From an uncultured bacterium (lineage in GTDB: Bacteria; Patescibacteriota; Patescibacteriia; UBA9570; XYC2-FULL-38-9), in the NCBI GenBank assembly GCA_937996685.1, contig CALKUP010000015.1, forward strand, positions 7,900 through 71,899: DNA of 64,000 bases. Reading direction: 5' to 3'. Positions within the stretch are counted from its first letter, which is position 1. Each line of letters opens with the position of its first letter. The position numbers and the translations under genes are program-made. Below the pieces are notes generated by a model. The model was given only the letters and a program-made list of their open reading frames with translations. It made no database searches and was not told the DNA's origin. Below, in pieces: positions 6,559-28,251 of this stretch.

Positions 6559-6576
6559 GAGCGCACTGTGCCTCAC

Positions 6577-9397: not shown

Positions 9398-9422
9398 CTC
9401 TTCAAAAGTAATAAAAGACTAC

Positions 9423-9452: not shown

Positions 9453-9549
9453 ATACGATACAATAAGAAATAAGGACAGGAGACGACTATCTTCAAGCGC
9501 GTGTTGCACTGAAAGTTGTCGTCTCCGAAAGATCAGCTTTCTTGCAAAG

Positions 9550-9852: not shown

Positions 9853-9907
9853 TAAAAAAGGCTCCATACAAAAAACGTCACATACGGATTGACCAACCGT
9901 TTTTTTA

Positions 9908-10687: not shown

Positions 10688-10764
10688 TACTCTTACAAGG
10701 GATATCCTAGCAAAAGGCTAAATCCTTCACAAGCAATCACCATAAACCAATTCTTCATGCAAGG

Positions 10765-12384
10765 CTACCGACGCACTAAATAGTCTTTCCCATATATATT
10801 CGCAAACTCAGTTGTATATAACTCAAGTGTGTTTTGATTTAAAAATGCGAGGAACGGCGTGTTGTTGCGACCAAGCGTTACTGACAGTTGGTGAGTGACG
10901 AAGAAATCTGTTGTTTCTAGATTCACAACATCATTGACCGCAAAATCAGACTGGCAATTCGCGTCATTACATTTCAAGAATCGGATATATCCGCGGGTTG
11001 TGTCCATATATGCAGCCATTGGAAATCCGTCAGGAGCTAGCGCCATCGTCACTCCTTGTCCCATATCACCAGTGAGATCCACAACGGAAAACTGTGCCGC
11101 ACCATTTGAACACACGGTGTCTCCACATTTTGCGATCTTTAAATTTGCATCGGTTTGATCATAATATCCAACCACCGGCAGTGCGTCTGGACCTACCACC
11201 AATGAATTATAGGAGCCGACCTCTGAAGCTCCTCCGTCATCTAGAACATTTAAAATACTGACCTCGCAATCAAACAATGGGCAAGTCGCGACCTTTAATG
11301 TACCTGCCCTTGAATAGGAAATATAGGTAAACCCTAATGGTGATGTCGCAATACTCACTGGATTCTGACTGACATTGTCTGCATCAAGGGTTCGTGTGAC
11401 ATTCCCAGACGCACAATCAAGACTGCCGCATGATGTTATTTTTAAGTCTGCCGTAGCCGAATCAACATACGCAATAATTGGAAAGCCGCGCTCATTCACC
11501 GTCACTGACAAAAATCCTGTTTGAATATTTTCAACCGATGTAATCACATTGCCGCTAGAGCACGTCGGATTCCCGCATTTCAATAACATGAGATGATGAT
11601 CACTCCAGCGATCATAGACAATGACAGGATTTCCGTCAGACCCAATAATCATCGCGGTGTACAGCGTTGCATCATCCGACAATACGGAAACAGTCGACGC
11701 GGTACATGCAACATTTTCGCAATGGACAAATTTTAAATCACGATCATTCACATTTGTATATGAAATAACCGGCAGCCCGTCTGTGCCAATTGTGGTTGAT
11801 GCACCGGCACCAATATATCCACCACCTGAACCATCAACCGAAGTTGTGATATTTCTTGCTGGAACAGATGGGATTGCTGGTAAAATAGGATCTGCTGCCG
11901 CAACACCAGTTTCATCAGTAGCGCATTCCCAACTACTTGCGCCCATTTTCGCAATTTGCCCTGCGGAACAACTTGGTAACGAGCGAATCGCCGCAACGGT
12001 TGCTTGCAGCGCTGTGAGACTTGAGCTGAGCGTTGCTGTTGTGGTCTCAGTCGTATTCACACGAGAACCCAATGTCTCCACTTGCCCGCTCAAAGTACTC
12101 GCCGCTGCACCCTGCCCTGTCACCGTCGCCTGCAACGCACTCACATCAACCCCGTCAACTGTCTTATTTTCTGGAACGGTAATATTTCCTGTCACTCGTA
12201 AATCATCTTTCACAGTCACCGGCTTTGCTCCTTTTTGCTGAAGATATCCTGTGCTTTTGAATACGACACTTGCAACATTTGTCAGCTTCACTGGTGTTGC
12301 TGCGCCTGCTGCCGCTGGAGCTACCGCACTCAAACAAATACTGAATGCCACAACAAGACGACGGATCGAGAAAAAAGTACGCAT
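10765..12384 (-). CDS. secreted protein with seven ~45-aa Cys-pair tandem repeats (beta-propeller-like) and a tail-fibre-like N-terminal region
   Basis: Signal peptide MRTFFSIRRLVVAFSICLSAVAPAAAGAA. Repeats of the form DG.PvI.Y.d....LK...C....C (e.g. DGLPVISYTNVNDRDLKFVHCENVAC, DGNPVIVYDRWSDHHLMLLKCGNPTC). The N-terminal Ala/Thr/Ser-rich segment is coiled-coil-like. Confidence 0.7.
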   Translation of the reverse strand: MRTFFSIRRLVVAFSICLSAVAPAAAGAATPVKLTNVASVVFKSTGYLQQKGAKPVTVKDDLRVTGNITVPENKTVDGVDVSALQATVTGQGAAASTLSGQVETLGSRVNTTETTTATLSSSLTALQATVAAIRSLPSCSAGQIAKMGASSWECATDETGVAAADPILPAIPSVPARNITTSVDGSGGGYIGAGASTTIGTDGLPVISYTNVNDRDLKFVHCENVACTASTVSVLSDDATLYTAMIIGSDGNPVIVYDRWSDHHLMLLKCGNPTCSSGNVITSVENIQTGFLSVTVNERGFPIIAYVDSATADLKITSCGSLDCASGNVTRTLDADNVSQNPVSIATSPLGFTYISYSRAGTLKVATCPLFDCEVSILNVLDDGGASEVGSYNSLVVGPDALPVVGYYDQTDANLKIAKCGDTVCSNGAAQFSVVDLTGDMGQGVTMALAPDGFPMAAYMDTTRGYIRFLKCNDANCQSDFAVNDVVNLETTDFFVTHQLSVTLGRNNTPFLAFLNQNTLELYTTEFANIYGKDYLVRR

Positions 12385-12521
12385 ATATATTTTGATGTTG
12401 TGTTTATACAGAAAGTATACCCAGACAACAACAGAGCGTCAAAGAAAGAGAGGCTTTTTTTCAATGCCGAACAATGCTATATTCTACACAGAAGATCAAC
12501 AAGATATTTTACGCAAAATCT

Positions 12522-12758
12522 ATGAAAACAATGACCTGCAAACAACTCGGCGGACCATGTGAGATGGCATTTCACACCAACACTGCTGATGAAGCAATTA
12601 AAGCCCAAGACAAACACTTGAAAGAAATGGTTGCTCAAGGCGACGTCGCACACGAACCAGCGAATACAGAAATGCGTGGTCGTTGGAAAAACCCAATTGG
12701 GGGCATAAAGTGGTATATGAAAGCGAAAAAAGATTTCGCTGCATTGTCTGAAGAATAA
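12522..12758 (+). CDS. DUF1059 family small protein
   Basis: Preferred start MKTMTCKQLGGPCEMAFHTNTADEAIKAQDKHLKEM... matches the conserved DUF1059 N-terminus (MxxMxCxxLGGxC). The track ORF begins upstream at 12474. Confidence 0.7.
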   Translation: MKTMTCKQLGGPCEMAFHTNTADEAIKAQDKHLKEMVAQGDVAHEPANTEMRGRWKNPIGGIKWYMKAKKDFAALSEE

Positions 12759-12772
12759 TTATTTTCATACCT

Positions 12773-13333
12773 ATGGCAAAAAAATCTCTTTCTGCAAAAC
12801 AACAAACTGAATTACTTAGTACATTGCAAACTCGTTTTGAAAAAAACATGAATCGCCACAAAGGCGTGAAATGGGACGCTGTTGCAAAACGACTTGAAGC
12901 AAAACCAGCAGCACTCTGGTCACTCTTTCAAATGGAAGAAACCGGCGGTGAACCTGATGTCGTTCGGATCAATAAAAAAACTAGTGAACTCTTGTTTATT
13001 GACTGCGCTCCAGAAAGTCCGAAAGGTCGCAGAAGTTTTTGCTTTGATCGCGCTTCCCTGAATTCTCGCAAAACCTTTAAACCAAAAAATAGCGCACTCG
13101 ATGCAGCAAAAGAAATGGGTATTGAAATTCTCACAGAGGAAGACTATCGTTTCCTGCAAACCCTTGGCGAATTCGATACCAAAACATCCAGCTGGATCGC
13201 AACCCCAACAGAAATTCGAAAACGCGGCGGCGCACTATTTTGTGACCGACGATATGACCATGTTTTCGTTTATCACAATGGCGCAGAATCATATTACGCA
13301 GCCCGTGGATTCCGAGGCTCACTGTTAGTGTAA
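12773..13333 (+). CDS. hypothetical protein (DUF4256-like, from memory)
   Basis: 186-aa soluble ORF. The family assignment needs an HMM check. Confidence 0.5.
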   Translation: MAKKSLSAKQQTELLSTLQTRFEKNMNRHKGVKWDAVAKRLEAKPAALWSLFQMEETGGEPDVVRINKKTSELLFIDCAPESPKGRRSFCFDRASLNSRKTFKPKNSALDAAKEMGIEILTEEDYRFLQTLGEFDTKTSSWIATPTEIRKRGGALFCDRRYDHVFVYHNGAESYYAARGFRGSLLV

Positions 13334-13405
13334 GTACTGATTAACTACTGTCCATTGAATGCAATCTATATTGCGTCTACTATTTTTTTACTTCTACATG
13401 TGACT

Positions 13406-14155
13406 ATGAAAAAAGGGAAAACTCTCACAACCATTCTTGAACAGATTGGACTCAGCGAACAAGAACAAACCCTCTACCTCGCTCTGCTGCATATGGGCAG
13501 CGGAACACTCGCTGACATTGTTCGTGAAACAAAAACGCATCGCCCGACAATGCAAAAATGGATTCCCCTACTTCTTGAAAAGGATCTGATTTCAGCAGTA
13601 ACCAAAGGGAAACGCACGGTATATTATCCTGCTTCCCCGACTCAATTACAAACACTTGTTCAAGAAACCGAACGCGCTTTAAGTGCTTTTTTGCCGAACC
13701 TACAAGATATTTACGATACAACGCACGAAAAACCGACGATTCGATATTTTGAAGGAAAAAATATTACAACTCTTATTTACACGGACGTGCTAGATACATG
13801 TCAAAAAGGTGACATCATCTATCGACATGAAGCGCCCGTCAATTACAAAACATTCACTGAATGGTTGCCGCCTGAATATTTTGAACGAATGCGTGAGCGC
13901 AAAGAAGTTCAGCAATTTGTTATTGTGAATGAAAAAACTGCCAAAGGAAAAAAGCACCTAGACGAAGATATTGAACGTGTTGTACCGACCGATATACACC
14001 TATTCAACACAAACGTTACCCAACTGATTTATAAACACAAAATTGCATTTATTGATTTTGAATCGAGCACTGCTTGGATTATCGAGAACACACGCTTTGC
14101 AGAATTTCAACGCGCGTTGTTTATTGCATTGTTTCAAACACTGGAAAACATCTAA
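13406..14155 (+). CDS. TrmB-family transcriptional regulator
   Basis: N-terminal winged HTH (LTTILEQIGLSEQEQTLYLALLHMGSGTLADIVRETK) and a TrmB-like C-terminal domain. Paralog of 46774..47499. Start moved from the track's 13355 to the ATG at 13406. Confidence 0.7.
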   Translation: MKKGKTLTTILEQIGLSEQEQTLYLALLHMGSGTLADIVRETKTHRPTMQKWIPLLLEKDLISAVTKGKRTVYYPASPTQLQTLVQETERALSAFLPNLQDIYDTTHEKPTIRYFEGKNITTLIYTDVLDTCQKGDIIYRHEAPVNYKTFTEWLPPEYFERMRERKEVQQFVIVNEKTAKGKKHLDEDIERVVPTDIHLFNTNVTQLIYKHKIAFIDFESSTAWIIENTRFAEFQRALFIALFQTLENI

Positions 14156-14156
14156 G

Positions 14157-17100
14157 CTATTTGCTTACAGCGAAAGTTCCGTTAGTCTTGAGCTTCCATG
14201 TGCGACTCACGCGTTTGCCTGATTTGCCATAGGTCACAGTCACTTGTTTCTTTTTTGTATTCACCGACAAGACTGGCTTTGATAAGTCGGTCACAGTAAG
14301 CGATTGTGATTGCTGTTTTGTGAGCGTATGCGCAGTTGTTAAACGCATTCCATAGACTCGCGCAGTCTTTCCTTTGACTGCTGCAATAAAGACTGAATCA
14401 TAACTATTGTATACCCGAGTCACAGCAATGCGATAATTTGCGCTTGTGTAGGCTGTTTTTCCAATTGTTTTTTTCGCTACTTGTACTCCATTTTTAAAGA
14501 CACGAACATCTTTACCGTTTGTTACAACAATACGCTTTTTATCTGTCGATAAGGCATATCGAAAATTTTTCGACGTTCCAAATGGTCTGAGTGTTGCAGT
14601 TGTTGTATCAGCATATGTCACTGTCAGCGCGGCACCACTTTGACGCACCGTCCGCACTGCTCCGTGATCTACCGGCGTTGTATCAACTGGCTCTGGAACA
14701 ACTTCAGGAGCGACAACCGTTACTGTGCGAGTCACTTCTGTTGCGGCATTTCCTGTACTATCTTGCACGTTATACCGCAATGTATATGTCCCAACAGTAT
14801 TCACATCAACGCTACCCGTTTGCACAATACTACTGGTGACCACACCCTGGACCGCATCTGTCGCTGTTGCTCCAGCGTCCGTATAACTATCACCTTGCGT
14901 GATTGTGACCGCGGAATTGCCAAGCAATGAAATCGTTGGTGCTGCCCGATCAAGTGTCACAGTAGACGCGACAGCTGATACTGTTGTATTTCCAAGTGCG
15001 TCTTGATACCGCAGTGTCACTGTGTACACACCGTCTGCCAAAGTTGATGCAGACGCAGAAGTAACATGGCTAGAAGTAAATAAATTTGAAAGTTGAAGCG
15101 TACTATTTACAGATTGCGTTGTATCCATCAACAACGTTGTTGAGCCGCTGGCATTATCAAATGACACTGAAATAGTGTTTGATTGTGGCCCTTCTGGAAG
15201 AGAATATTGCAATTGCAACGCGTTATTAAAACTACTGCTCGCAGGTGATGTGAGCGTCGGGGTTTGGGTTGTTGTATCAATAATAACACTCGTTGCAACA
15301 GCACTCGTTGCTGGATTATTACGACCATCACGATAACTAAGTGTCACAGTGTGTGTTCCGTCAGCAAGGACTGGCATCGCACTTGGCGTAATCGTATTGA
15401 TATTTGAAAGATTATCAAAATTTACTTGATTGCCACTATCTGCAGGATTAAACAAAAAATTCACTGACTGACTATTTTCCATTTGGAATACTACCGTGCC
15501 ACTGGTTGCTACATTCGTGAATGTGACACGCACGCTTCCGGCAAGTGGTGCTTCTGGAAGAGAATATTGCAGACGGACTCGATTCATCGATCCTGACCCT
15601 GGCGATGACAATGTTGGTGATTGCGTAACAGTGTCAACTGTAACCGTCGTTTGCGCTGCAACAGAAATATCCCCTTCATCATCCACGGAAAAAATACTGT
15701 AGTAATAAAGACGATCCAGCAAATCATTATCTGAACGTGTTGTTCCGGTCACACCACTCGCAACAGCTGAGCCATCCGTCACACTCGTCGGATACGCTGA
15801 TGTACTACGACGAATTGTCACTGACGAAAAATGCGGATCGGTTGAATTTGTCCACGCAAGGTTCACGTCATTCCCAACAGCTGTCGCAGTAAAAGCCGTC
15901 GGCGGAGTGGTATAGCCTAATTCGTACGCACCAATATCACAATTGGTATTTTGCGGGCGAGAAGTTTGCCGTGAATCTGTTATAAGAGCCGAACCAGCTG
16001 CATCTGTACATGACACAGGCGGGATAAGATTTAATGTATCACCAACTCCTGACAATGCGAGTGTTTGCACAAAACCTCCATTATTTGCCGGCACCGCTGT
16101 TGCCATGTAACTCGGTGGCACTGGATGATTGAATGAATCTCCTGTCACTGAGGTGATAAAACAATCTTCTCTTAATTCCCCAATATAATTATAGCCTTGT
16201 GATGTAAGGTTTCCTTGGCAATCCTCATAAAAAGGTGATGGCATTGGAGCAACAAAATTGGATGCAATAATGTTATTTTTCAGAATAACATTACTAAATC
16301 CCCCACTATAGACACCAGCTGCAATACCTGCATGATTATTTGTAAAGGTTGAAAACGCAATCACAATTTCTGGTGTATCACCTGTACTTGAATTGAATCC
16401 ACCCCCAGTATCAGATGCGGTATTATTATAAAACGTACCATTAGTAATCTGCATTGGCGTGCCAGCAAATACACCACCTCCAGCCACCGCTGTGTTCTCA
16501 ATAAAGGTGACACGATTCATAACAATTGGATTATTCCCTTCAGGCCCAGAACCAGAAAGACCTCCACCAGCATCTACCGCTGCTGTATTATTTGTAAACT
16601 CAACATCGGTGAGCGTATTGGTTGTTGTTGTGTTTGTATCAATAAACATACCACCGCCACTAGCAGCTGAGTTTCCAGAAATGATTGTACGACTGATATC
16701 AGATGTACAATCACCTGAAATTCCGATACCGCCACCAAACACTGTTTGCACCCCTGGATCAGCTGACATGTTGCCACTCACTGTCACATCCGTCAGTGTT
16801 ATATCCCCGGCTGCACAATAGATACCAGCGCCATACTGCGAAATAATCCCACTTGGGTTATCAAGGACACTATTTTGGATTGTCACATGTGAAAACACCA
16901 ATGAGCCCTCATTTAATACACCGCCACCATTTGCACTGGTCACTGAACTGTCATTCACAGTCACACCAGACATTGTCGCTCGCGCCCCGCTGGCAATATG
17001 AAAAGCACGGTCAAGATCATCTGAGTCAATAATGGTCGTTGCCATGTCAGCGCCAGTCACGGTTGTGAGGTCTGCATCAAGAAAGTCAAAATCACCCGTT

Positions 17101-17351
17101 ACATTCAAGTCTTCACCTGCTCCTGATCGTGTAATATGGTACGTATTTGCTGGCAACACAATCGTATCAACACCTCCACTATTTGCCGCAGTCACTGCTT
17201 CACGCAACGAACAATCGGAGTCACATGTACCGTCGGCTGTATCGGTATTTTTTGTGACTGTATACGTTGCGGCGTGTGCAACTGTTGGCGTCAATCCAAT
17301 AAGAACAAAGAAGAGAATTGATAACGCGCTACCATAAAATATTTTCAGCAT
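14157..17351 (-). CDS. giant secreted right-handed beta-helix protein with Ig/FN3-like domains and a conserved C-terminal module
   Basis: 1064 aa with a signal peptide. N-terminal CDSDCSLREAVTAANSGG then many PbH1-type repeats (NNTA..GGG). Thr/Ser-rich Ig-like segments follow. The C-terminal ~170 aa are homologous to the C-terminus of the 18990..25397 protein. Confidence 0.85.
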   Translation of the reverse strand: MLKIFYGSALSILFFVLIGLTPTVAHAATYTVTKNTDTADGTCDSDCSLREAVTAANSGGVDTIVLPANTYHITRSGAGEDLNVTGDFDFLDADLTTVTGADMATTIIDSDDLDRAFHIASGARATMSGVTVNDSSVTSANGGGVLNEGSLVFSHVTIQNSVLDNPSGIISQYGAGIYCAAGDITLTDVTVSGNMSADPGVQTVFGGGIGISGDCTSDISRTIISGNSAASGGGMFIDTNTTTTNTLTDVEFTNNTAAVDAGGGLSGSGPEGNNPIVMNRVTFIENTAVAGGGVFAGTPMQITNGTFYNNTASDTGGGFNSSTGDTPEIVIAFSTFTNNHAGIAAGVYSGGFSNVILKNNIIASNFVAPMPSPFYEDCQGNLTSQGYNYIGELREDCFITSVTGDSFNHPVPPSYMATAVPANNGGFVQTLALSGVGDTLNLIPPVSCTDAAGSALITDSRQTSRPQNTNCDIGAYELGYTTPPTAFTATAVGNDVNLAWTNSTDPHFSSVTIRRSTSAYPTSVTDGSAVASGVTGTTRSDNDLLDRLYYYSIFSVDDEGDISVAAQTTVTVDTVTQSPTLSSPGSGSMNRVRLQYSLPEAPLAGSVRVTFTNVATSGTVVFQMENSQSVNFLFNPADSGNQVNFDNLSNINTITPSAMPVLADGTHTVTLSYRDGRNNPATSAVATSVIIDTTTQTPTLTSPASSSFNNALQLQYSLPEGPQSNTISVSFDNASGSTTLLMDTTQSVNSTLQLSNLFTSSHVTSASASTLADGVYTVTLRYQDALGNTTVSAVASTVTLDRAAPTISLLGNSAVTITQGDSYTDAGATATDAVQGVVTSSIVQTGSVDVNTVGTYTLRYNVQDSTGNAATEVTRTVTVVAPEVVPEPVDTTPVDHGAVRTVRQSGAALTVTYADTTTATLRPFGTSKNFRYALSTDKKRIVVTNGKDVRVFKNGVQVAKKTIGKTAYTSANYRIAVTRVYNSYDSVFIAAVKGKTARVYGMRLTTAHTLTKQQSQSLTVTDLSKPVLSVNTKKKQVTVTYGKSGKRVSRTWKLKTNGTFAVSK

Positions 17352-17462
17352 AAAGATATAATTGATTTTGAAAGATTATCTTTATTCTATCATAGATTCA
17401 TTGCGTGTGACTACAAAAAAAGGCGGCTCATGTGCCACCTTTTTTAGAGAACTCTTATGTTC

Positions 17463-17798
17463 TTATTTTACTGCGAGCAACTCAACGTCGAAATGCAACG
17501 TTGCGCCACCAGGGATCACGCCCGGAATACCCATTGGTCCATATGCCAAGTCTGATGGGATGACCAATTTCCGTGTTCCGCCAACTTTCATCCCAGCAAC
17601 ACCTTCATCCCAACCAGCAATCACCATGCCGCCACCGAGCGCGAATTCAAACGGCCCACGCGCGCGTGAACTATCAAACTGCGTTCCGTCTTCCAATGTT
17701 CCAGTGTAATGCACTGAAACCATCATGCCTTTAACAGCTTCCGCTCCGTCACCCACTGTGACATCTTCATATTGTAAGCCTGTGTTTGTTGTAACCAT
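17463..17798 (-). CDS. FKBP-type peptidyl-prolyl cis-trans isomerase
   Basis: 111 aa: GLQYEDVTVGDGAEAVKGMMVSVHYTGTLEDGTQFDSS...GMKVGGTRKLVIPSDLAYG is a canonical FKBP domain. Confidence 0.9.
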   Translation of the reverse strand: MVTTNTGLQYEDVTVGDGAEAVKGMMVSVHYTGTLEDGTQFDSSRARGPFEFALGGGMVIAGWDEGVAGMKVGGTRKLVIPSDLAYGPMGIPGVIPGGATLHFDVELLAVK

Positions 17799-17885
17799 AC
17801 ATAATCAATCAATAATAGACTCATACTGTAACACAAAGTCCCTGACTCTATCTAGTTCTTGGTTCTTGTGGTAGGGTCTCTCTGA

Positions 17886-18956
17886 ATGAATACACCTATT
17901 ATACCGAGTCCAACACAACGCGATTTTCTTGTTATTTACAGCAATATCGATGCCCACAGCGCAGCTGACGGGGGTTATACTGGAGTTTCCCCATTTGCTG
18001 GACGAGGTGAAATGGCAAGCTGCAATCGCAGTTATGCCTATCTCTTGAAATATGCCAAACGCATTGGAATGTCTGGCGGATTTGCGACCGTTGCTGATAT
18101 TAGCGCAGCCGGCACCGTCTCTTCCTATTGGACATACACCACTCAATGGAATCGTGTCCACACCCCTGCCACAACAACAGTGGTGTTTGATAAATTCTCA
18201 AATGCTGAGCACACGAATGATGCAGCAATGAAACAATTGCTTGGTGACTCTGAATCGATTGCGCTGTATCACAATCACGACACACGGATGTTGTTTGATA
18301 ACAAACTCACCACCCACGCCGCCCTCTCCCAATACATGTTGCCGACTGTTGCGGTCAATCTTGGTTCACTCAAAACTATGAACGCAGCCAAACGCGCGCT
18401 CAAAAAACAAATCGACAATCATGCGCATATTGAAGACTTTACAAAAGAGTTGATTTTAAAAGATGTCTTCGGCGGTGGTGGCGATCATATTTATAAAATT
18501 CATACAGATGCAGCGTTTGCGAAAATCCCAACCGGTGTTGATGATGTGCAATTTTTATTACAACCATTTATTCATGCCAGCAATTTTGATACTGGGCGCA
18601 AAAATGGCAAGGCTGATTTACGCGTGATTATCGGTGATAAACAAATTTTGCAAAGTTTTATTCGCACAGCCAAAAGTGGTGATTTTCGCGCGAACACAAA
18701 ACAAGGCGGCGCGATTGATTACATCACGACAGATGACATTCCAGAACAAGTCGTGAAAATGATTGCAAAGATTCAAAAAACCGCACGTCTCAAAACCGGC
18801 ATGTACACCCTTGATTTTATGCGTAGCAAAAACGGCAACTTATATCTCGTTGAAGGAAACGCAAGCCCAGGACTTACCTGGTCAAACCCTGAAGATGAAC
18901 GCCGTGCAAAACAATTGATTCGCATTATCGTCAAACAACTACAGCTCATGAAGTAA
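17886..18956 (+). CDS. ATP-grasp domain protein (YheC/YheD- or RimK-like ligase), substrate unknown
   Basis: Gly-rich loop KDVFGGGGDHIYKI, then QPFIHA, DLRVIIG, and C-terminal LDFMRSKNGNLYLVEGNASPGL (the E-x-N metal-binding motif of ATP-grasp enzymes). Confidence 0.6.
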   Translation: MNTPIIPSPTQRDFLVIYSNIDAHSAADGGYTGVSPFAGRGEMASCNRSYAYLLKYAKRIGMSGGFATVADISAAGTVSSYWTYTTQWNRVHTPATTTVVFDKFSNAEHTNDAAMKQLLGDSESIALYHNHDTRMLFDNKLTTHAALSQYMLPTVAVNLGSLKTMNAAKRALKKQIDNHAHIEDFTKELILKDVFGGGGDHIYKIHTDAAFAKIPTGVDDVQFLLQPFIHASNFDTGRKNGKADLRVIIGDKQILQSFIRTAKSGDFRANTKQGGAIDYITTDDIPEQVVKMIAKIQKTARLKTGMYTLDFMRSKNGNLYLVEGNASPGLTWSNPEDERRAKQLIRIIVKQLQLMK

Positions 18957-18984
18957 AAAATACCCGGTGCGCCGGGTATTTTTC
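18957..18984. terminator. bidirectional intrinsic terminator
   Basis: AAAAAA-TACCCGG-TGCG-CCGGGTA-TTTTT between convergent genes. Confidence 0.65.
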
Positions 18985-18989
18985 TGCTC

Positions 18990-21900
18990 TTATTGTTTTT
19001 TCAATGCACCGCTTGATTGCACAAGCCATGTATATGATTGCTTTTTCTTGCCTGAACCAAAAGTGGTTGTGAGTTGTTTTTTCTTTACAGAGAACCCAAT
19101 ATTGAGTTTTGTATTACTTTGAATTTTGACTGTTTGAGCAGTTTTTTTCTTTAACCCATTCCCTGTTGTGAGCTGATGCGCAAAGACTGTTGCCGTCGTC
19201 TTTTTTGGAGCGATTGTGACAAAGACTGAGTCAAAATTCTTGTGCACTTTTCTGACAGAAAGTGTGTATTGTCCTTTTTGTACTGTTGCGTTTCCAAGTT
19301 TCGCTCGCGCAACCCGACGACTATTTGCAAACACGCGAATTTCTTTTCCGTTTGTCGCAACGATCCGTTTTTTATTACTTGATAACGTATAGAGAAAGTT
19401 TGCAGACGTTCCAAATGGTTGAATTGTCGCTGTTGTCGCATCACGATATGTCACAAGTAACTGGTTGTTGATTTTTTGTACAGTCGTAATGACTCCATCA
19501 TTTGTTGTTGTGACAGGTGGCGTTGTCGGAGTTTCTGTTGTCGTTCCTGGATCAGTAGCCGGCTCATCAACTGGACAACCCGTCGTCGTAAAGATCCCAG
19601 CATCTGATGTCGAGCGATTACCAGAAGTATCGGCGGATGACGCAGTATATTGATACGTTGTACATGCCGTGAGACCAGACAGCAATACAGCATGGCTGGT
19701 CACACGTGGCGCAAAGTCTACTTCTGCAGTTGTTGTCGTTGACCCGCCAACCGGACCATATGACACGCGACTTGATGACGCTTCATTCGTTGTCCATGTG
19801 ATAGTAGCTCCTGTTGTCGCTGGCGTTGCGCTCAACGCTGTAATAGCTGGGGGCGTACTATCATCCATGCCCCCAATAGACCACAGCTCTCGCCCATAGG
19901 CCTGGGATTGCGCAGTAAATACTGCTCCACCCCCAAAACCAAGTACCGTCGATGGATCGCTGCCCAATAGGCCTGGATTAATATCAGACAGCATGTATGT
20001 CCCGTTTGATGTTCCGTCTGAACGCCACAACTCTAGACCATGTGCTCCATCGTGTACTTGAAAATATAATATCCCATTGACTGCACTAAAATCACCCCAA
20101 CTCGAATTATTCGCACTTGTCACTTCTTTTACTTGAACTGTTCCTTCAGTTGTACCATCCGTTTTCCATAATTGGGGAAACCCAGATCCGTTATCGGCGG
20201 TAAAAAAGAGTGAACCGCCAACGATGGTTAAATTCCCTGGATAGCTATCACCTCCTGTGTTTTCATTGATATCTTTTACCAGCGCTGTTCCTTCTTCTGT
20301 TCCATTTGATTTCCAGAGCTCCGTGCCACCTTCATTACTATTGTATGCAGAAAAATACATCCAATCATTCAGCACAACCATACTGCTCGGCAAGGCACTG
20401 CAATCAGGACAGAGATCAACTGCGAGTACTGTTCCTTCAGTTGTGCCATCAGTCTTCCATAACTCATACTCATGAGAATCATCACTAGCAGTAAAATACA
20501 ACGTACCGTGATACTCAACAAATCCAAATGGACCACTGCCTGTACTGCCTGGGAATATATCTTTCACGAGCGTTGTTCCTTCTTCTGTTCCATTAGATTT
20601 CCACAATTCAAAACCATGAGCGCTGTCATATGCAGAAAAATATAACTCACTATTGTATGTAAATCCACCCTGGATATAGGACATTCCCTCTTCATTTACA
20701 TCTTTTACGAGCGCTGTTCCTTCGGTTGTACCGTCCGTCTTCCATAACTCGTAACTATGCGTTCCATCATCAGCGGTAAAATACAGAGCATTACCAACTA
20801 TCTTAAAATTATATGGATATGAATTATCAACTCCTGTAAAAATATCTTTTACCATTACTGTTCCTTCTTCAGTTCCATCAGTCTTCCATAGTTCGTAGCC
20901 ATGCGTTCCGTCATCAGCGGTGAAATATGTAACACCATCGAGGTAGATAAAACCGTATGGATAACTACTACCACTTGGACGAATATCTTTTAATAATTGC
21001 GTACCCTCTGCTGTGCCGTCTGATACATACACCTCTGCGCCAGTGGACGGATGTGACGCAACACCAATTAAGCGACTCCCTGCAACAATAAAATCTGCCA
21101 CACTTCCACCAGTTCCGCTGCTGTCATTTACTTCAGCGACCATGGAAAAATTATTTTCAGTGGTGCTAAATTTCCACAAACGTTGACCGCTGTCGCCATT
21201 GTCTCCGGCAAATAACAGATTCGTCCCATTTATCGTAAACCACTCTATGCCATCACCTGTTGGGTTCAGATCCTCAACCATCAATGTTCCTTCTTCAGTT
21301 CCATCAGTCTTCCATAGTTCATAGCCATGCGTTCCGTCATCAGCGGTGAAAAAGACCTGACCGTCTACAATAGTAAACATTCGTATATCCAGACTACGAT
21401 CACCTTCGTTAATATCTTTCACCAACGTTGTTCCTTCAGTTGTGCCGTCGGTCTTCCATAACTCGTAGCCATGCGTTCCGTCATTTGCAGCAAAAAATAA
21501 TGTTGAGCCAGTGCCAAAAAACATTCCCGGACTAGCATTTGCGCTGCCAGGATTAATATCTTTCACCACATAGGTTCCTTCATCAGTTCCATCAGTACGC
21601 CAGAGCTCAGAACCATTTGTACTATTTGTGAGCTGGTAATAACCAATGCCATTAAAACTATACACATCACCAATGGTAACTCCAGAGCCGATTGGTTCAA
21701 TGTTCTTAATCAAATATGTGCCACGAGCAGTTCCGTTTGTTCTCCATAACTCCCAACCATTTACACCATCATCAGCTGCAAACACCACTGTTCCATCCCC
21801 TATCTGAGTAAAGAAACAAGCATATGAACCATATGATCCCGCATTCACATCTTTCACCATACGTGTTCCGTTTGGCGTTCCATCAGTTTTCCATAACTCA

Positions 21901-24900
21901 CTGCCATTGATGCCGTCATCCGCCGTGAAATACATCACTGAATCAAACACCGTTTGCCTATCAATCCTTGCTTGGTCTTCAGGGTGAATATCTTTAATCA
22001 TTTCTGTTCCGTTTGGCGTTCCGTCAGATGCCCACATTTCTCGACCATGCACTCCGTCATCTGCTGAGAATACAATCCGACCATTCACAACATACAAAGA
22101 TTGAATTGACTCTGAATACGGACTGATTTGTTTTATAAATTCTGTCCCAGCATCTGTCCCGTCTGATTTCCATATTTCTGATGAGTCACTAAAGAACACA
22201 GAAAAATATGCGGTAGACCCAATAACCTCAATATCATTGATATACCCCTCTTCACCCGAAAATGAGCGCAAGAGAGTCGTTCCACCTGTTGTACCGTCTG
22301 TTTTCCAAAGCTCACTGTCGTCTTTTGCTTTAAAATAGGTCACGCCGTCACCAGTTGCAATGTCACCTATGTCTGCATCAGCAGGGCCATCATCAATGTC
22401 TTTTATCAACTCTGGCGTTTCTGAAGCACCTGCACTTGGACAACCATTCGTCAAAAAATATTTTGAATTACTTTGCGCTGAGTTCTCTGCAGTATCAACT
22501 GACTGCACGGTGTATCCATAATGCGTACACGGCAGCAATTCAGTCAGTACAACTGAATGACTTGTCACTCTCGGGTCTATGTCAATTTGACTTGTTGTTA
22601 TTGGCGCTTGATTTGTTGCGTGATACGACACCTCACTCGAGCTCGCCTCATTGGTATTCCATGTAATTGTTACACTTTCATCTGTAATACTTACCTCTTG
22701 CTGATAAATACTTGGGCCCGTTGTATCCGTAATACTCCCTAATACCCACGGCTCCCAATTATATTCTGGTGTATATGCTGAAAAAAATACACGGCCTTCA
22801 AAAGATGTGAAAAAAGCCGGATAACTAGAATCTACACCAGGATTCAAATCTGCAAGCTCTTGCGTTCCGCCTTCAGTCCCATCCGATACCCATGGTTCAG
22901 TTCCGTGATCGGTTGTATTCACACTAAAATACAACAAACCGTTTATTGCTGTAAGGTTTGAAAATGCATAACTCGAAACATCCGTAATGTCTTTTACTTT
23001 ATGTGTCCCACCCTCGGTTCCATCAGACGCATAGAGCTGTCGAGATCCTGTCCCGTCATCGGCAATGAAAAATAACGTATCACCAACGACTATCATCTGC
23101 TCAGGACTTGCATACGCGGTACCTGGCGCAATATCTTTCACCATGTACGTTCCACTTTCAGTCCCATCTGAACGCCAGAGCTCGACTCCAGTGTCGGTAT
23201 CTGGAGAATATATTTCAAAATATGCAATACCATTCATTGCCACAATATATGATGGCTGACCTGAACATCCACTAGAACACGCATCTTTTACCATGTATGT
23301 TCCGCCTTCAGTCCCATCTGAACGCCAGAGCTCCATGCCATGTACGCCATCATTTGTATTAAACAATACAGTTGAATCATCAATCGCCGTTAAATCATAT
23401 GGATCTCCATTGCCCGAAGGATTTGTATCTTTGACCATGTATGTTCCTTCCTCGGTTCCGTCAGAACTCCAGAGCTCTGTTCCGTTGGTGTCATCTGTTG
23501 CAACAAAAAATGCCGTATCACCAGCGTTAATGATATACGTTGGATCACTAGAGCCTGACAACCGAATATCCTTCACCAGCATTGTTCCGCTTTCAGTCCC
23601 ATCTGAACGCCAAAGTTCTTTTCCGTTTACCCCATCAGTTGCAGCAAAAAACAACATGCCATTGACGACAGTAAATGATTCAATGTCACTAGAGTCAACT
23701 CCAGTGTTAATGTCTTTTAACAAGAACGTCCCTTCAGGAGTTCCATTTGATTGCCAAAGCTCTGTTCCATGATCAGCGTCAGTGGCTGTAAAATATGTCA
23801 CACCATCGAGATAGGTAAAATGATCTGGAGCGCCGTCATTTCCAAGGTATATATCTTTCACCAGCGTTGTTCCGCTTGGCGTCCCATCAGAAATATAGAG
23901 TTCATTTCCAGTCACCGGTGACGTTGCTGAGCCAATCATAAAACTGCCCGCAGCAATAAATTGAGAACCACCATCCATTGTTGCAGTGCCACGATACAAA
24001 GACTTCACTTTCACTGTCCCTCCTTCTGTTCCGTCTGACTTCCAAAGACCTGTTCCATCGGGTCCTGTTGTACCTGCAAAAAACACGTTGGTTCCCGTTG
24101 AGCTAAATTGACCACCATATTGAAACACAACGCCGTTCGAGTACGGACTCACATCACGAATCAATGTCGTCCCTCCTTCTGTACCGTCGGTTTTCCATAG
24201 CTCATGTCCATATACCGGATCAATAGCACTAAAGACAACATCTGAACCGACCATTTGAAAATTCGATGGGTATGCATTTGAATTGCCTGGGAAAATATCT
24301 TTGACCAAAACAGTACCCCCTTCTGTTCCATTTGATTTCCAGAGCTCGCTACCATGAACGCCGTCGTCAGCAACAAAGAATACAGAATCATTATATATAA
24401 AGAAATCAAACATATTTGAACCTTCAGTACCTGGGAAAATATCTTTGACTAATACAGTACCTTCCTCAGTTCCGTCTGATTTCCATAATTCAGCACCATT
24501 TGTACCATCATTTAATGAAAAATACGCCACTCCATTATGGGCAATACTGTAATACACGGCAGAGCTTGCGCTCCCAGGGGCAATATCAGACACCAGCGTC
24601 GTCACGTCAGTATCCTTTACTGTTTTCCATATTTCAGATCCGTAATCCGGCGTGGTAGCGCTATAGAGAATCGAATCACCAATGTCAACTAAATAACCTG
24701 GATACGCCCCCCCGATGCCTGCGTATAGAGGAGCCACCATATACGTCCCTATTTCTGTTCCATCTGATTTCCAGAGCTCGCTACCATCAAATCCGTTACT
24801 TGCGGCAAAATACAACCCTGAACTCGTTGCAAGCATAGAGCTAATCCCAGAATCATCTGTTGAGAGATTAATCTCAGCAACCATCACCGTTCCACCTTCT

Positions 24901-25397
24901 GTTCCGTCTGATTTCCAGAGCTCTCGACCATGTGTATCATCTTCGGCTGTAAAAAACAGCGTCCCAGAAACATCGATCAAATCACGCGGATAACTTCCAC
25001 CACTTGTATTAATATCTTTTACTTTTACTGTCCCTTCCTCTGTTCCATCTGATTTCCAGAGCTCTTGCCCGTCACTTGAATCATTAGAAACAAAAAACAA
25101 CGTCCCGTTCGACGCTGTTAGATAATCAATATTCGCAGAACCTCCCACATTCGGATTCGCGACTAATACCGTTCCACCTTCTGTCCCATCTGATTTCCAT
25201 AACGCATTCCCATTCACACCATCATTTGTTGTGAAATAGGTTGTTGTTCCAATAGTCGTGAGATTCAAAATATCATCTGCCTCTGGAGCAGTATTCATAT
25301 CTTTAAACAGCTCGGGCGTATCATACGCAAACGCAGCTGCTGTATGAAAAACGAAGACGCTTGCAAGTACTATAGAAAATATCAGGCGCTGTATCAT
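18990..25397 (-). CDS. giant (2135 aa) secreted ELWxxDGT-repeat protein with FN3-like domains and the shared C-terminal module
   Basis: Signal peptide MIQRLIFSIVLASVFVFHTAAAFA. About 40 repeats of ~45 aa (GxELWKSDGTEGGTVLVKDIxPG...). Two FN3-like Thr/Ser-rich segments (ITWTTNEASSSRVSYGP). C-terminus VTYRDATTATIQPFGTSANF...KKRIVATNGK... is homologous to the end of 14157..17351. Confidence 0.9.
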   Translation of the reverse strand: MIQRLIFSIVLASVFVFHTAAAFAYDTPELFKDMNTAPEADDILNLTTIGTTTYFTTNDGVNGNALWKSDGTEGGTVLVANPNVGGSANIDYLTASNGTLFFVSNDSSDGQELWKSDGTEEGTVKVKDINTSGGSYPRDLIDVSGTLFFTAEDDTHGRELWKSDGTEGGTVMVAEINLSTDDSGISSMLATSSGLYFAASNGFDGSELWKSDGTEIGTYMVAPLYAGIGGAYPGYLVDIGDSILYSATTPDYGSEIWKTVKDTDVTTLVSDIAPGSASSAVYYSIAHNGVAYFSLNDGTNGAELWKSDGTEEGTVLVKDIFPGTEGSNMFDFFIYNDSVFFVADDGVHGSELWKSNGTEGGTVLVKDIFPGNSNAYPSNFQMVGSDVVFSAIDPVYGHELWKTDGTEGGTTLIRDVSPYSNGVVFQYGGQFSSTGTNVFFAGTTGPDGTGLWKSDGTEGGTVKVKSLYRGTATMDGGSQFIAAGSFMIGSATSPVTGNELYISDGTPSGTTLVKDIYLGNDGAPDHFTYLDGVTYFTATDADHGTELWQSNGTPEGTFLLKDINTGVDSSDIESFTVVNGMLFFAATDGVNGKELWRSDGTESGTMLVKDIRLSGSSDPTYIINAGDTAFFVATDDTNGTELWSSDGTEEGTYMVKDTNPSGNGDPYDLTAIDDSTVLFNTNDGVHGMELWRSDGTEGGTYMVKDACSSGCSGQPSYIVAMNGIAYFEIYSPDTDTGVELWRSDGTESGTYMVKDIAPGTAYASPEQMIVVGDTLFFIADDGTGSRQLYASDGTEGGTHKVKDITDVSSYAFSNLTAINGLLYFSVNTTDHGTEPWVSDGTEGGTQELADLNPGVDSSYPAFFTSFEGRVFFSAYTPEYNWEPWVLGSITDTTGPSIYQQEVSITDESVTITWNTNEASSSEVSYHATNQAPITTSQIDIDPRVTSHSVVLTELLPCTHYGYTVQSVDTAENSAQSNSKYFLTNGCPSAGASETPELIKDIDDGPADADIGDIATGDGVTYFKAKDDSELWKTDGTTGGTTLLRSFSGEEGYINDIEVIGSTAYFSVFFSDSSEIWKSDGTDAGTEFIKQISPYSESIQSLYVVNGRIVFSADDGVHGREMWASDGTPNGTEMIKDIHPEDQARIDRQTVFDSVMYFTADDGINGSELWKTDGTPNGTRMVKDVNAGSYGSYACFFTQIGDGTVVFAADDGVNGWELWRTNGTARGTYLIKNIEPIGSGVTIGDVYSFNGIGYYQLTNSTNGSELWRTDGTDEGTYVVKDINPGSANASPGMFFGTGSTLFFAANDGTHGYELWKTDGTTEGTTLVKDINEGDRSLDIRMFTIVDGQVFFTADDGTHGYELWKTDGTEEGTLMVEDLNPTGDGIEWFTINGTNLLFAGDNGDSGQRLWKFSTTENNFSMVAEVNDSSGTGGSVADFIVAGSRLIGVASHPSTGAEVYVSDGTAEGTQLLKDIRPSGSSYPYGFIYLDGVTYFTADDGTHGYELWKTDGTEEGTVMVKDIFTGVDNSYPYNFKIVGNALYFTADDGTHSYELWKTDGTTEGTALVKDVNEEGMSYIQGGFTYNSELYFSAYDSAHGFELWKSNGTEEGTTLVKDIFPGSTGSGPFGFVEYHGTLYFTASDDSHEYELWKTDGTTEGTVLAVDLCPDCSALPSSMVVLNDWMYFSAYNSNEGGTELWKSNGTEEGTALVKDINENTGGDSYPGNLTIVGGSLFFTADNGSGFPQLWKTDGTTEGTVQVKEVTSANNSSWGDFSAVNGILYFQVHDGAHGLELWRSDGTSNGTYMLSDINPGLLGSDPSTVLGFGGGAVFTAQSQAYGRELWSIGGMDDSTPPAITALSATPATTGATITWTTNEASSSRVSYGPVGGSTTTTAEVDFAPRVTSHAVLLSGLTACTTYQYTASSADTSGNRSTSDAGIFTTTGCPVDEPATDPGTTTETPTTPPVTTTNDGVITTVQKINNQLLVTYRDATTATIQPFGTSANFLYTLSSNKKRIVATNGKEIRVFANSRRVARAKLGNATVQKGQYTLSVRKVHKNFDSVFVTIAPKKTTATVFAHQLTTGNGLKKKTAQTVKIQSNTKLNIGFSVKKKQLTTTFGSGKKKQSYTWLVQSSGALKKQ

Positions 25398-25522: not shown

Positions 25523-26089
25523 TTATTGAGCGCTTTGTGTTGTCGTTGTAGTCGCTGCATCACTGGTTCCACCCGCTATACCGCGTGGTCCGTGGTCACC
25601 GTCCGGCCCCATGCCTTTCCCATGACCGAGCTGCAGATATTCCATTGGAACATTATTGTCAGTTGCCCATTTTTGCAACTCTTCCATCTTCGTCTTCATT
25701 TCTGCCTGATGTTCTTCACGTGTTTTTGTGTCAGCTGTTCCTGGCTGCGGCCGATTCGCTTCCAGCTCTTTTTGTTTTGCGACAATTTTATCCATCTGCT
25801 CTTGTGTCAGCTTGCCGTCTTTTACTGCTTGATTCAACTGATCTGTAACAGCCTGCTGTCGCTGTGCATCCATTTCTGTTTTTTGCTCATCAAAGACTTT
25901 CTGGACATCGTCTTTATTGAGATTGAACTTCGTTGAAATTTTTGTAACCAGCGAATCCATTGGATTTGTCTGCTGCGTTTCAGCGGCATGCGTTGCTCCA
26001 GCTGCAAAAGCGGAGAGCCCGCCGGCAAGCACAAGCGCTGTTAAGACTGATGGAACGACGTTCTTTTTTGAAAATGTGATATTTTTCAT
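25523..26089 (-). CDS. CpxP/Spy/ZraP-family periplasmic protein (LTxxQ motif, Gly/His-rich C-terminus)
   Basis: Start moved to MKNITFSKK... (signal peptide). Helical Gln/Lys/Glu-rich body with KLTQEQ, C-terminus GHGKGMGPDGDHGPRG. It lies directly downstream of the HK/RR pair. Confidence 0.6.
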   Translation of the reverse strand: MKNITFSKKNVVPSVLTALVLAGGLSAFAAGATHAAETQQTNPMDSLVTKISTKFNLNKDDVQKVFDEQKTEMDAQRQQAVTDQLNQAVKDGKLTQEQMDKIVAKQKELEANRPQPGTADTKTREEHQAEMKTKMEELQKWATDNNVPMEYLQLGHGKGMGPDGDHGPRGIAGGTSDAATTTTTQSAQ

Positions 26090-26275
26090 ATGTATTATAT
26101 TGATGAATAAAGCACTCGCACACAACAGCGTTGCACTCCAAGTTTCCGATCGAAAAACCCAGGGCACGCGTTGAACACAATGGACTGTCGTGTAGGGAGC
26201 GAAGCCGCGACACTGTCGTGACCTATCCACAGCATACCAATACCTCAATGAACTGAAGGTGAAGAAATAGAGTCG

Positions 26276-27445
26276 TTACACTGTCAGTGTAATTGTTGTT
26301 CCGCTTTGTTTGTTTTCTGATACAATTTGCGAATCAATCACAACAGTCCCGTGATGCTTTTCAATAATGGATTGTGTAATCGCGAGCCCAAGCCCCGTTC
26401 CGCCAGTATGCCGTGCGCGTGAATCATCAACCCGATAAAATCGCTCTGTTACATGTGACAGTGCTCCCACTGGAATACCTGCGCCATCATCGTGAATACG
26501 CACCACCGCATTATCGTTATCTGACGATACGGTTACAGAAATAGTATGCGCACCATATTTAATCGCATTTTCAATACAATTCATAAAGGCGCGTTGCAAT
26601 AATGTCGCGCTGCCCTCGCGCATCACAGCCTCACTTGCAATATCAAGATGAATCACTTTCCCGTCACGCTCTGCAATCGGAGTCAGCTGATCAACCGCAC
26701 GCTGCACAACTTCAACGATATTTACCATATCGCGCGTCATCTGATCTTGAGGCAATGACAATAATAATAAATCCTCAATCAATCGATTCATAAACTGCGT
26801 TGATTGCAATGACTGATCAATCGCCTCTGACACAACTGGAACAGCCGTTGCGTCATCGCGCACTGATTCTAAATTTGTTTGCACAATTGTCAGCGGTGTC
26901 TTGAGTTCATGTGAAGCATTTTCAACAAACCGTTTCTGCGCTGCAAACGCTTCATGCAAACGGCGTAGCATGGCATTAAAATTTCCAACCAACTCACCAA
27001 GCTCATCATTCGTGTTCACGCCCGCAACATGAATGTCCAAGTTATCACTATCAACAATATGTGTTGCTTCTGTAATCTTACGAATCGGTTTCAATAACCG
27101 ACCAGTAATAATGTATCCACCACCAAATGACAAAAACATCACGACAAACAATATAATGATTGTTGCTTGCTGAACCTGCGCTTGATCCTCCTCACGAACC
27201 TGTTCAATTAACTGACGCACTTCCGCCGGAGCCGGCCCTTCCCCTTTCGTATCTGGGGGACGATTTTGCGATCGCTGAAATAACGCACGCGCTTCTGGGT
27301 CTTTTACTTGTTCAAACACCTCTTGCGGCGTCTTGCGAAATTGATATTCAGAATAGACTCGCACAGACCCAGTAAATACCAAAATTGCGAGCAACAAAAT
27401 ACATGAATACCACAAGGTTAATTGAAAGCGAATGGATAATGTCAT
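26276..27445 (-). CDS. sensor histidine kinase (HAMP, HisKA, HATPase_c)
   Basis: Two N-terminal TM helices; H-box SHELKTPLT; N/G boxes DDGAGIP and GGTGLGLAI. Confidence 0.9.
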   Translation of the reverse strand: MTLSIRFQLTLWYSCILLLAILVFTGSVRVYSEYQFRKTPQEVFEQVKDPEARALFQRSQNRPPDTKGEGPAPAEVRQLIEQVREEDQAQVQQATIIILFVVMFLSFGGGYIITGRLLKPIRKITEATHIVDSDNLDIHVAGVNTNDELGELVGNFNAMLRRLHEAFAAQKRFVENASHELKTPLTIVQTNLESVRDDATAVPVVSEAIDQSLQSTQFMNRLIEDLLLLSLPQDQMTRDMVNIVEVVQRAVDQLTPIAERDGKVIHLDIASEAVMREGSATLLQRAFMNCIENAIKYGAHTISVTVSSDNDNAVVRIHDDGAGIPVGALSHVTERFYRVDDSRARHTGGTGLGLAITQSIIEKHHGTVVIDSQIVSENKQSGTTITLTV

Positions 27446-28107: not shown

Positions 28108-28251
28108 ATACGCAGTATAATACATTCCTTGCGTGAAGTCTCGGTGAAGGATTATCAAGAGACCGCTCCCCACTTCACAATCATTTCACTTTTTGTGCTC
28201 TATACTAGCTCCAGATTACATAATCTTTAATACATTTTCATTACAGTACAT

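Follow-up and report, generated by a model that had tools for sequence, protein, structure and literature searches.

The SLH, CWB2, GW and WxL domains and the basic anchoring domains of Lactobacillus S-layer proteins are modules that retain secreted proteins at the bacterial cell envelope without covalent attachment. Here we describe a C-terminal module that is shared by two giant secreted proteins, winA (1064 residues) and winB (2135 residues), encoded in a 64,000-nucleotide stretch of DNA from an uncultured bacterium (GenBank assembly GCA_937996685.1, contig CALKUP010000015.1, positions 7,900 to 71,899 of the forward strand; hereafter the window). Like the non-covalent wall-binding modules (SLH, CWB2, GW/SH3-like, WxL, LysM, SH3b and the Lactobacillus S-layer domains), it is a folded terminal domain, as confidently predicted, that is reused on many passengers, and it shares with them the pairing of a basic module with an acidic passenger, a flexible linker, the lack of a covalent sorting motif and the occurrence of several paralogs per genome. 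However, it shows no sequence kinship to any of them (Pfam and NCBIfam, E ≤ 1), and it is predicted to consist of propeller blades, in contrast to the helical SLH, α/β CWB2, SH3-like and LysM folds. The known modules are found in Bacillota and Actinomycetota, whereas the present one occurs in bacteria of the candidate phyla radiation (CPR, or Patescibacteria), in which wall binding is something that we infer. We propose, with about as much ground for belief as for doubt, that the module is a non-covalent cell-envelope retention domain that binds an anionic component of the envelope.

A second comparison is with C-terminal sorting signals. Choice-of-anchor domains occur in surface proteins whose C-terminal anchor is of the LPXTG, PEP-CTERM or type IX secretion system (T9SS) type (bioRxiv 10.1101/2023.03.06.531300). 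The module occupies the same extreme C-terminal slot in choice-of-anchor Q, CSLREA and repeat-rich surface proteins, but it contains neither an LPXTG or PEP motif nor a hydrophobic helix followed by a basic tail, gives no Por_Secre_tail match, is two to five times longer than these signals and has no cognate processing enzyme encoded nearby.

Much of bacterial diversity falls within the CPR, whose members live attached to other cells. To our knowledge, little has been reported about how they display adhesins and enzymes at their surface.

Two Giant Secreted Proteins Share a C-Terminal Module

An earlier note on the window, made from the sequence alone, had claimed that these two proteins, though otherwise unrelated, end in a common module. 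Comparison of the full-length proteins by BLASTP bears this out, as it gives a single significant alignment, between winA residues 897-1058 and winB residues 1968-2130 (E = 3e-36), which covers only the last ~165 residues, while all other segments give E > 3. The aligned regions are identical at 69 of 163 positions (42%, where the note had estimated ~45%), with 65% positives and one gap. With either module as the tblastn query against all six frames, the whole window was found to contain just two copies, at nucleotides 14160-14663 and 18993-19496, and winA and winB each end 0-1 residues past the module. The genes and the copies are located as follows.

14157..17351, minus strand: winA gene, 1064-aa secreted protein (open reading frame [ORF] list)
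18990..25397, minus strand: winB gene, 2135-aa secreted protein (ORF list)
14160..14663, minus strand: module copy A, winA residues 897-1064; basic, all-β, four propeller-type blades predicted
18993..19496, minus strand: module copy B, winB residues 1968-2135 (BLASTP; hidden Markov model [HMM] E 1e-92; isoelectric point [pI] 11.1)

The similarity between the two copies is far above chance. When only these two sequences are used to build a profile, it retrieves 38 cluster representatives at E ≤ 1e-10 from 1.84 billion proteins. Against the family profiles, the copies score E ~1e-92 with the seed HMM and 1e-48 to 1e-56 with an HMM of 61 sequences.

The Module Defines an Uncatalogued, Strictly C-Terminal Domain Family

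The family was delimited by an exhaustive HMM search with the two-copy profile against 1.84 billion representatives of 50%-identity clusters, which returned 77 representatives at E ≤ 1e-3, including the 38 at E ≤ 1e-10. When the domain was re-mapped in each match, it lay at the extreme C terminus in 74 of the 77, with a tail beyond it that is usually 1-8 residues and mostly no longer than 8. The other three matches (P0060, P0073 and P0076) are weak, multi-stretch alignments in long repetitive proteins with domain E values above 0.04, and were rejected as noise. An internal or N-terminal occurrence, which the earlier note had set as grounds for giving up its proposal, was found in none of the 74 genuine members, and the coding sequence of the module extends to the stop codon in all fetched loci. 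Word-indexed searches strongly under-report this family: those with the two-sequence and 61-sequence profiles found 1 and 3 proteins, respectively. A pattern scan of genome contigs gave nothing when its patterns came from the two window copies, no pattern could be drawn from the 61-sequence alignment owing to its diversity, and a 10-sequence alignment led to three loci; a scan of metagenome contigs gave no confirmed module locus.

The module occurs in two forms. The full form is ~165 residues long, with four predicted blades. About one-third of the members have a "core-only" form of ~125 residues (HMM positions ~45-166), which lacks the first ~45 residues, corresponding to the first blade, and is preceded by a highly acidic linker. 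Near-invariant positions are G53 (in "TNGK"), Y91, R110-L111 ("RLT"; R110 is 97% conserved across the family), L117 and G165.

No family matching the module was found in Pfam, NCBIfam or the Protein Data Bank (PDB) sequences, using both full proteins and the isolated modules at E ≤ 1 and, in Pfam, the 61 aligned modules as well; thus no known domain of unrelated function in these collections matches it, a match of this kind being the other outcome that the earlier note had named as decisive against its proposal. The PDB sequence search with the module profile gave a chance match only (E = 0.54), and the commonest weak Pfam match, Tcp10_C, which was seen in 12 of the 61 modules with a best E of 0.006, is below threshold. 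The SLH, CWB2, WxL, LysM, SH3b, GW, choline-binding and PG_binding families likewise gave no Pfam match to the two modules or to the 61 aligned modules (E ≤ 1). A kinship with the WxL domain, suggested by "TWKL" near the module end, was dismissed for want of Pfam support.

Both window proteins show the features by which we propose to recognize the family, namely the profile match, the extreme C-terminal position, the signal peptide and a basic module joined to an acidic passenger. We conclude that the module is an uncatalogued family of folded domains that is strictly C-terminal and occurs in secreted multidomain proteins of CPR bacteria. C-terminal surface anchoring as a function class is well known; the domain family, the fold in this role and the lineage are uncatalogued.

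Two other window proteins gave weak, non-significant matches to the module HMM, which reflect generic blade-like similarity and are not module copies. One, encoded at 37714..39513 (minus strand; module HMM E = 0.39), is a secreted M23 peptidase that contains four or five "AAGDVNGDGxDE" repeats of an FG-GAP-like kind. The other, at 56181..58220 (plus strand; module HMM E = 0.013), is a VanW/PG_binding_4 protein with a His-rich N terminus and a Lys/Thr-rich C-terminal tail.

The Module Is Carried by Diverse Secreted Passengers

N-terminal Sec signal peptides are present in nearly all full-length members, including winA and winB. P0038 (1236 aa) had the appearance of a cytoplasmic GT4 glycosyltransferase fused to the module, a reading that was rejected since the gene call is a read-through; a Met and a signal peptide are found at residue 390, and the protein beyond that point is a CSLREA-type β-helix protein. 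Among the 64 members scanned, the passengers contain PF16403 Ig-like domains in 32, choice-of-anchor Q in 25, CSLREA in 21 and FG-GAP repeats in 15, while the rarer passengers are Chlam_PMP (7 members), SdiA-regulated/phytase-like (6), β-helix (4), M23 peptidase (1) and RTX repeats (1). The M23 case, P0011, is a metallopeptidase followed by the module, at the place where such hydrolases carry wall-targeting domains.

In the choice-of-anchor Q proteins of this family, the anchor slot is held by the module, and LPXTG, PEP-CTERM and T9SS anchors were not found. For winA and winB, motif (regular expression) and hydropathy scans detected no LPXTG-type motif in the last 250 residues, where the maximum 19-residue hydropathy is 0.7-0.9; the claim that neither protein has an LPxTG motif or a C-terminal transmembrane segment therefore stands. 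NCBIfam sorting domains (T9SS, PEP-CTERM and others) gave no match to winA, winB or the isolated modules at E ≤ 1, and in the 64 family members none is present among the 25 families listed of the 57 matched.

The winA protein consists, in order, of a signal peptide, a CSLREA motif, a Gly-rich Pmp-like β-helix region with choice-of-anchor Q, Ig-like domains, a linker and the module. The N-terminal signal peptide is its only strongly hydrophobic window in a hydrophobicity scan, and its passenger passes both curated NCBIfam cutoffs for choice-of-anchor Q/CSLREA surface proteins (for CSLREA_Nterm, TIGR04214, 30.3 bits against a cutoff of 25). The mapped parts, all on the minus strand, are as follows.

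17271..17351, minus strand: winA Sec signal peptide, residues 1-27, ...TVAHA/ATYTV (read from the sequence)
15918..16088, minus strand: winA choice-of-anchor Q, residues 422-478 (NF041518, E 1.7e-7, 31.3 bits against a cutoff of 25)
14715..14933, minus strand: winA Ig-like domain PF16403/DUF5011 (Bact_surface_Ig-like), residues 807-879, directly before the linker (Pfam E 8.9e-20)
14664..14714, minus strand: winA Pro/Glu/Thr-rich linker, residues 880-896, APEVVPEPVDTTPVDH (sequence)

The winB protein has a different layout, with a signal peptide, two ELWxxDGT tracts that are each followed by an FN3-like domain, a Thr/Pro linker and the module. It is an ELWxxDGT repeat protein by NCBIfam (TIGR04534, 1676 bits against a cutoff of 65, 35 repeat stretches), and its signal peptide is again the only strongly hydrophobic stretch in the scan. 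No second case of ELWxxDGT repeats joined to the module was found among the 64 family members.

25326..25397, minus strand: winB Sec signal peptide, residues 1-24, ...AAAFA/YDTPE (sequence and hydrophobicity scan)
22470..22691, minus strand: winB first FN3-like domain, residues 903-976, between the repeat tracts (Pfam fn3 E 1.3e-4)
19584..19835, minus strand: winB second FN3-like domain, residues 1855-1938 (Pfam Pur_ac_phosph_N E 7e-14)
19497..19583, minus strand: winB Thr/Pro-rich linker, residues 1939-1967, ending CPVDEPATDPGTTTETPTTPPVTTTND (sequence)

Directly upstream of winB, and head-to-tail with it on the same strand, are a 241-aa ORF (25523..26248) encoding a secreted, charged, coiled-coil-like protein with no Pfam match, a HAMP histidine kinase gene (26276..27445) and a response regulator gene (27442..28173). 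These genes may form an operon with winB, or the two-component system may regulate it.

A Basic Module Is Joined to an Acidic Passenger

The charge distribution of the carriers is sharply divided. Across 65 members, the module has a median pI of 10.4, with 20% Lys plus Arg and 7% Asp plus Glu, while the passenger has a pI at or below 4.05, which is the floor of the calculation, with 2.4% Lys plus Arg and 13% Asp plus Glu. The 30 residues that precede the module are rich in Pro, Thr and Ser or in Asp and Glu throughout the family, with ~2% Lys plus Arg. The basic residues of the module cluster in its last three quarters, corresponding to blades II-IV; the conserved ones are K54, R57, K68/69, K105, R110, K119/120, K141-R143 and K160. 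The window proteins conform to this division, with module pI values of 10.9-11.1 (18-19% Lys plus Arg) and passengers at pI ≤ 4.05, so that the Lys-rich character noted earlier is confirmed.

CPR bacteria depend on scavenged nucleotides, and a module so rich in Lys and Arg might bind an extracellular polyanion for reasons unrelated to anchoring, such as DNA or RNA, for example for a biofilm matrix or for nucleic-acid scavenging. The window does contain a PilB-type ATPase gene. However, no nucleic-acid-binding family resembles the module, the passengers look like adhesins or enzymes and not like nucleases or uptake components, and nothing specific favors DNA over other polyanions, all of which makes this explanation extremely improbable.

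The Module Is Predicted to Be an Open Arc of Propeller Blades

An AlphaFold2 model built from the 61-sequence alignment is all-β and confident (predicted local distance difference test [pLDDT] 96.3; predicted template modeling score 0.91), with 15 strands grouped 4+4+4+3. The model from a single sequence was mediocre (pLDDT 66), and the alignment-based model was used instead. In the predicted structure, four-stranded antiparallel sheets lie side by side around an axis, which is the arrangement of β-propeller blades; the structure prediction that had been called for thus agrees with the β-rich character first read from the sequence. With its 165 residues and a confident fold prediction, the module counts as a domain and not as a short signal.

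The best structural matches of the predicted fold are the PROPPINs Hsv2, Atg18 and WIPI2. These are, however, seven-bladed WD40-like proteins with an FRRG motif, whereas the module has 171 residues and four blades and is 13-16% identical to them. We do not assign it to the PROPPINs, as no Pfam WD40 or PROPPIN family matched the module, though no search was aimed at the FRRG motif. A viral fold library gave generic WD40 matches only. Approximately 150 module residues superpose on consecutive blades of seven- to eight-bladed rings, and the Foldseek matches include 6r5y, an eight-bladed propeller assembled from two four-bladed fragments (TM score 0.55/0.58). Since the best superpositions are arcs of such rings and none of the top 60 fold matches is a closed four-bladed propeller of the hemopexin type, the module, to judge from the superposition scores of the model, most likely forms an open half-ring, with four blades in the full form and three in the core-only form. 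The known fragment propellers (6r5y and the BamB fragment 2yms) are engineered or dissected from near-identical blades, in contrast to the barely similar blades of the module. Indeed, blade-to-blade similarity is marginal, the best hhalign pair being B3-B4 with 55% probability, and a recent amplification of a repeat unit was therefore rejected.

An open arc raises the question of a partner. In one alternative, a second copy would close a six- to eight-bladed ring and thereby dimerize or cross-link surface proteins, a role that would be compatible with anchoring. The occurrence of both four-blade and three-blade versions in the family and of several paralogs encoded side by side is consistent with such oligomerization, but the openness of the ring is taken from a monomeric AlphaFold2 model, which cannot show it, two domains that each have a net charge of about +20 could pair only at an electrostatic cost unless a polyanion were present, and the strict C-terminal position and the charge split would be left unexplained. 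We consider oligomerization as the explanation improbable. In a related scheme, which also strikes us as unlikely, if a shade less so, the split propeller would dock by closing around an anionic envelope polymer or with an envelope receptor, allowing a combinatorial surface assembly of different adhesins and enzymes by 4+4, 4+3 and 3+3 blades in one branch of the CPR. If true, this would be an anchoring principle without a described counterpart among bacterial surface proteins.

Lineage and Genomic Context

The valyl-tRNA synthetase (ValRS) encoded in the window groups with CPR sequences. It has an identical counterpart on a public contig of 168 kb. Its named relatives (51-60% identity) are almost all Patescibacteria, among them Kerfeldbacteria, Buchananbacteria, Falkowbacteria, Magasanikbacteria, Uhrbacteria and others, the exceptions being entries labeled only "bacterium" and one metagenome-assembled genome (MAG) labeled Planctomycetes. 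The named members of the module family point the same way, as they are Candidatus Kerfeldbacteria (P0005) and "Patescibacteria group bacterium" (P0011), and the gene content of the window fits the CPR, with a short YidC of 261 residues, VanW with a peptidoglycan-binding domain, TrmB regulators, a PilB-type ATPase and many ORFs that belong to no family. No outer-membrane genes were seen in the window, and the lineage appears to have no outer membrane.

A MAG labeled "Bdellovibrionales bacterium" (JBIIKE01) encodes a winA ortholog that is 82% identical, in conserved synteny, together with a second module gene. The diderm origin that this label would imply was rejected, since the ValRS relatives and the gene content favor Patescibacteria; the label or binning of JBIIKE01 is probably wrong, given the grouping of the window ValRS. 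Two of its contigs (JBIIKE010000014.1 and JBIIKE010000048.1) are syntenic with the window, with orthologs at ~70-99% amino acid identity, most of them at least 82%.

Within the window, winA and winB lie head-to-tail on the minus strand, 1.6 kb apart. The earlier note had called them convergent, which is incorrect; the truly convergent pair is winA and a TrmB-like gene that ends 1 nt from the winA stop codon. The note had rightly placed FKBP and ATP-grasp genes between winA and winB, as the ORF list confirms.

17463..17798, minus strand: FKBP-type peptidyl-prolyl isomerase gene, cytoplasmic product, between winA and winB
17886..18956, plus strand: RimK-like ATP-grasp ligase gene, between winA and winB
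13355..14155, plus strand: TrmB-like regulator gene, convergent with winA

The trio of ATP-grasp, FKBP and winA-ortholog genes is conserved in one close relative (locus L002) only, and not near distant members. The FKBP and ATP-grasp products were considered as functional partners and set aside, as they are probably bystanders given that the neighborhood is kept in L002 alone. Across five loci, TrmB-like regulators, ABC, PNPOx and amine-oxidase genes recur sporadically near module genes; a TrmB-like gene also lies ~1.5 kb upstream of the P0006 gene in locus L008.

Module genes are clustered. Besides the two in the window, P0006 and P0017 are encoded 8 kb apart in L008, the P0023 gene is accompanied by a divergent copy of 517 residues in L007, and locus L009 contains at least four module genes within ~13 kb. 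In L009 (JGI 3300013121, Ga0172278_1290; 1..21323), these are at 8428..9978 (minus), 9935..11320 (plus), 11317..14469 (plus) and from 18110 off the end of the locus, and they adjoin phage-type integrases, a SMODS/DncV-like nucleotidyltransferase gene of the cyclic oligonucleotide-based antiphage signaling system (CBASS) type and a Fic gene. L009 is a surface-protein island beside a mobile or defense island.

A strictly C-terminal module on diverse secreted cargo, which in choice-of-anchor Q proteins stands in for the LPXTG, PEP-CTERM or T9SS signal, might be a sorting or secretion signal for a dedicated machinery comparable to T9SS, sortase or exosortase, which would recognize it and perhaps cleave it or attach it covalently. 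However, no sortase-like, rhombosortase-like or other conserved gene adjoins the module genes in the window or in loci L001 and L005 to L010, and neither a sortase signature (TLxTC) nor an LPXTG substrate was detected in the window or the fetched loci. In addition, Sec export should suffice in a lineage that apparently lacks an outer membrane, and a 165-residue segment that lacks a conserved cleavage motif, a hydrophobic helix and a tripartite signal is unlike known sorting signals. We regard a sorting signal as very improbable. The earlier note had left anchoring and sorting as joint candidates and had suggested looking for a co-occurring sortase-like gene. Anchoring is the part of that proposal that gains support, in that it accords with a C-terminal, shuffled module and its charge split, whereas a dedicated sorting or export machinery finds no support in the gene neighborhoods.

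Two further observations concern window genes without the module. At 10765..12384 (minus strand) is a gene for a 539-aa Sec-secreted protein that matches no Pfam family and has an Ala/Thr-rich coiled N-terminal part and six repeats of ~45 residues, each with a "[DN]LK[IFV]xxCxxxxC" cysteine pair; it may be an uncharacterized disulfide-stapled repeat or propeller protein. The class II (phr2-type) photolyase gene at 30358..31863 (minus strand) is the only G+C peak in the window (0.51 compared with ~0.44) and may have been acquired horizontally.

A Putative Envelope Anchor

What these data establish is a homologous domain that is exclusively C-terminal, shuffled among carriers with secretion signals, divided from its passengers by charge, predicted to form propeller blades and found in a CPR lineage. 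We favor attachment because the module is joined to unrelated Sec-secreted passengers, because of the split between basic module and acidic passenger and because of the M23 fusion. The wall or envelope is the favored target because the fusion partner is a peptidoglycan hydrolase and because the module replaces the classical anchors in choice-of-anchor Q proteins. In the proposed mechanism, the carrier would be exported by Sec and its signal peptide cleaved, after which the basic module (pI ~10-11, with three or four predicted blades) would bind an anionic part of the producer's own envelope through electrostatic as well as specific contacts. Candidate ligands are a wall-associated acidic polymer, a peptidoglycan-linked glycan and the anionic head groups of membrane lipids. 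The acidic passenger, whether a β-helix, ELWxxDGT repeats, an FG-GAP propeller, an Ig domain or an enzyme, would then be projected outward on its Pro/Thr- or Asp/Glu-rich linker. The binding of the envelope, the identity of the ligand and the pairing of the half-propeller are the conjectural elements of this scheme.

The module could also be turned outward. CPR bacteria are typically episymbionts, β-propellers are common lectin and receptor-binding folds, and bacteriolytic enzymes target the victim's wall with a C-terminal domain. In such an adhesion model, the module would be the working end of the protein, attaching to the surface of a host or prey bacterium by way of anionic glycopolymers or lipids displayed there, and would not anchor the protein to the producer. 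The basic charge would suit any anionic bacterial surface and the M23 fusion parallels the bacteriolytic enzymes. Moreover, the receptor-binding protein of phage phi11 recognizes N-acetylglucosamine-decorated wall teichoic acid, an anionic wall polymer, through a five-bladed propeller (PMC4901313). That protein provides a precedent for a propeller that binds a wall polymer, though it differs from the module in being a closed five-bladed ring in a phage baseplate protein, has no detectable sequence relation to it and is not among the top fold matches. Against adhesion, the carriers have no other candidate anchor once the signal peptide is cleaved and would therefore be released. In addition, one module on very different passengers with several paralogs per locus is the pattern of a common anchor with a variable working passenger, and the FG-GAP, Ig-like, Pmp-like β-helix and choice-of-anchor Q passengers are themselves typical adhesin heads. 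Adhesion is thus unlikely, though less so than the other alternatives.

Several points weigh against the anchoring proposal. The target of a basic lectin-like propeller could just as well be the surface of a host or prey cell, a reading that the M23 fusion fits too, and the open half-propeller of the model hints at the need for a partner, such that the primary role may be oligomerization. An all-against-all BLAST of five loci revealed no consistently conserved neighbor, and thus nothing that points to a receptor. The loci sampled are parts of genomes, and the envelope chemistry of these organisms (teichoic-acid-like polymers, an S-layer) lies outside that sample. Finally, the family comprises just 74 clusters at 50% identity; such rarity means that the module is not a general CPR solution to anchoring.

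For the lineages that do carry it, the module marks secreted and probably surface-retained proteins of Kerfeldbacteria-like bacteria. It provides a searchable signature for the annotation of surface proteomes in which its carriers are now called "hypothetical" or "DUF5011 domain-containing," and, as a small and confidently modeled domain, it could be expressed for binding work on wall polymers, lipids and host cells. If the anchor role is true, a basic partial β-propeller would be a new fold among bacterial surface-anchoring domains and would offer a handle on an anionic envelope component of uncultivated CPR organisms.

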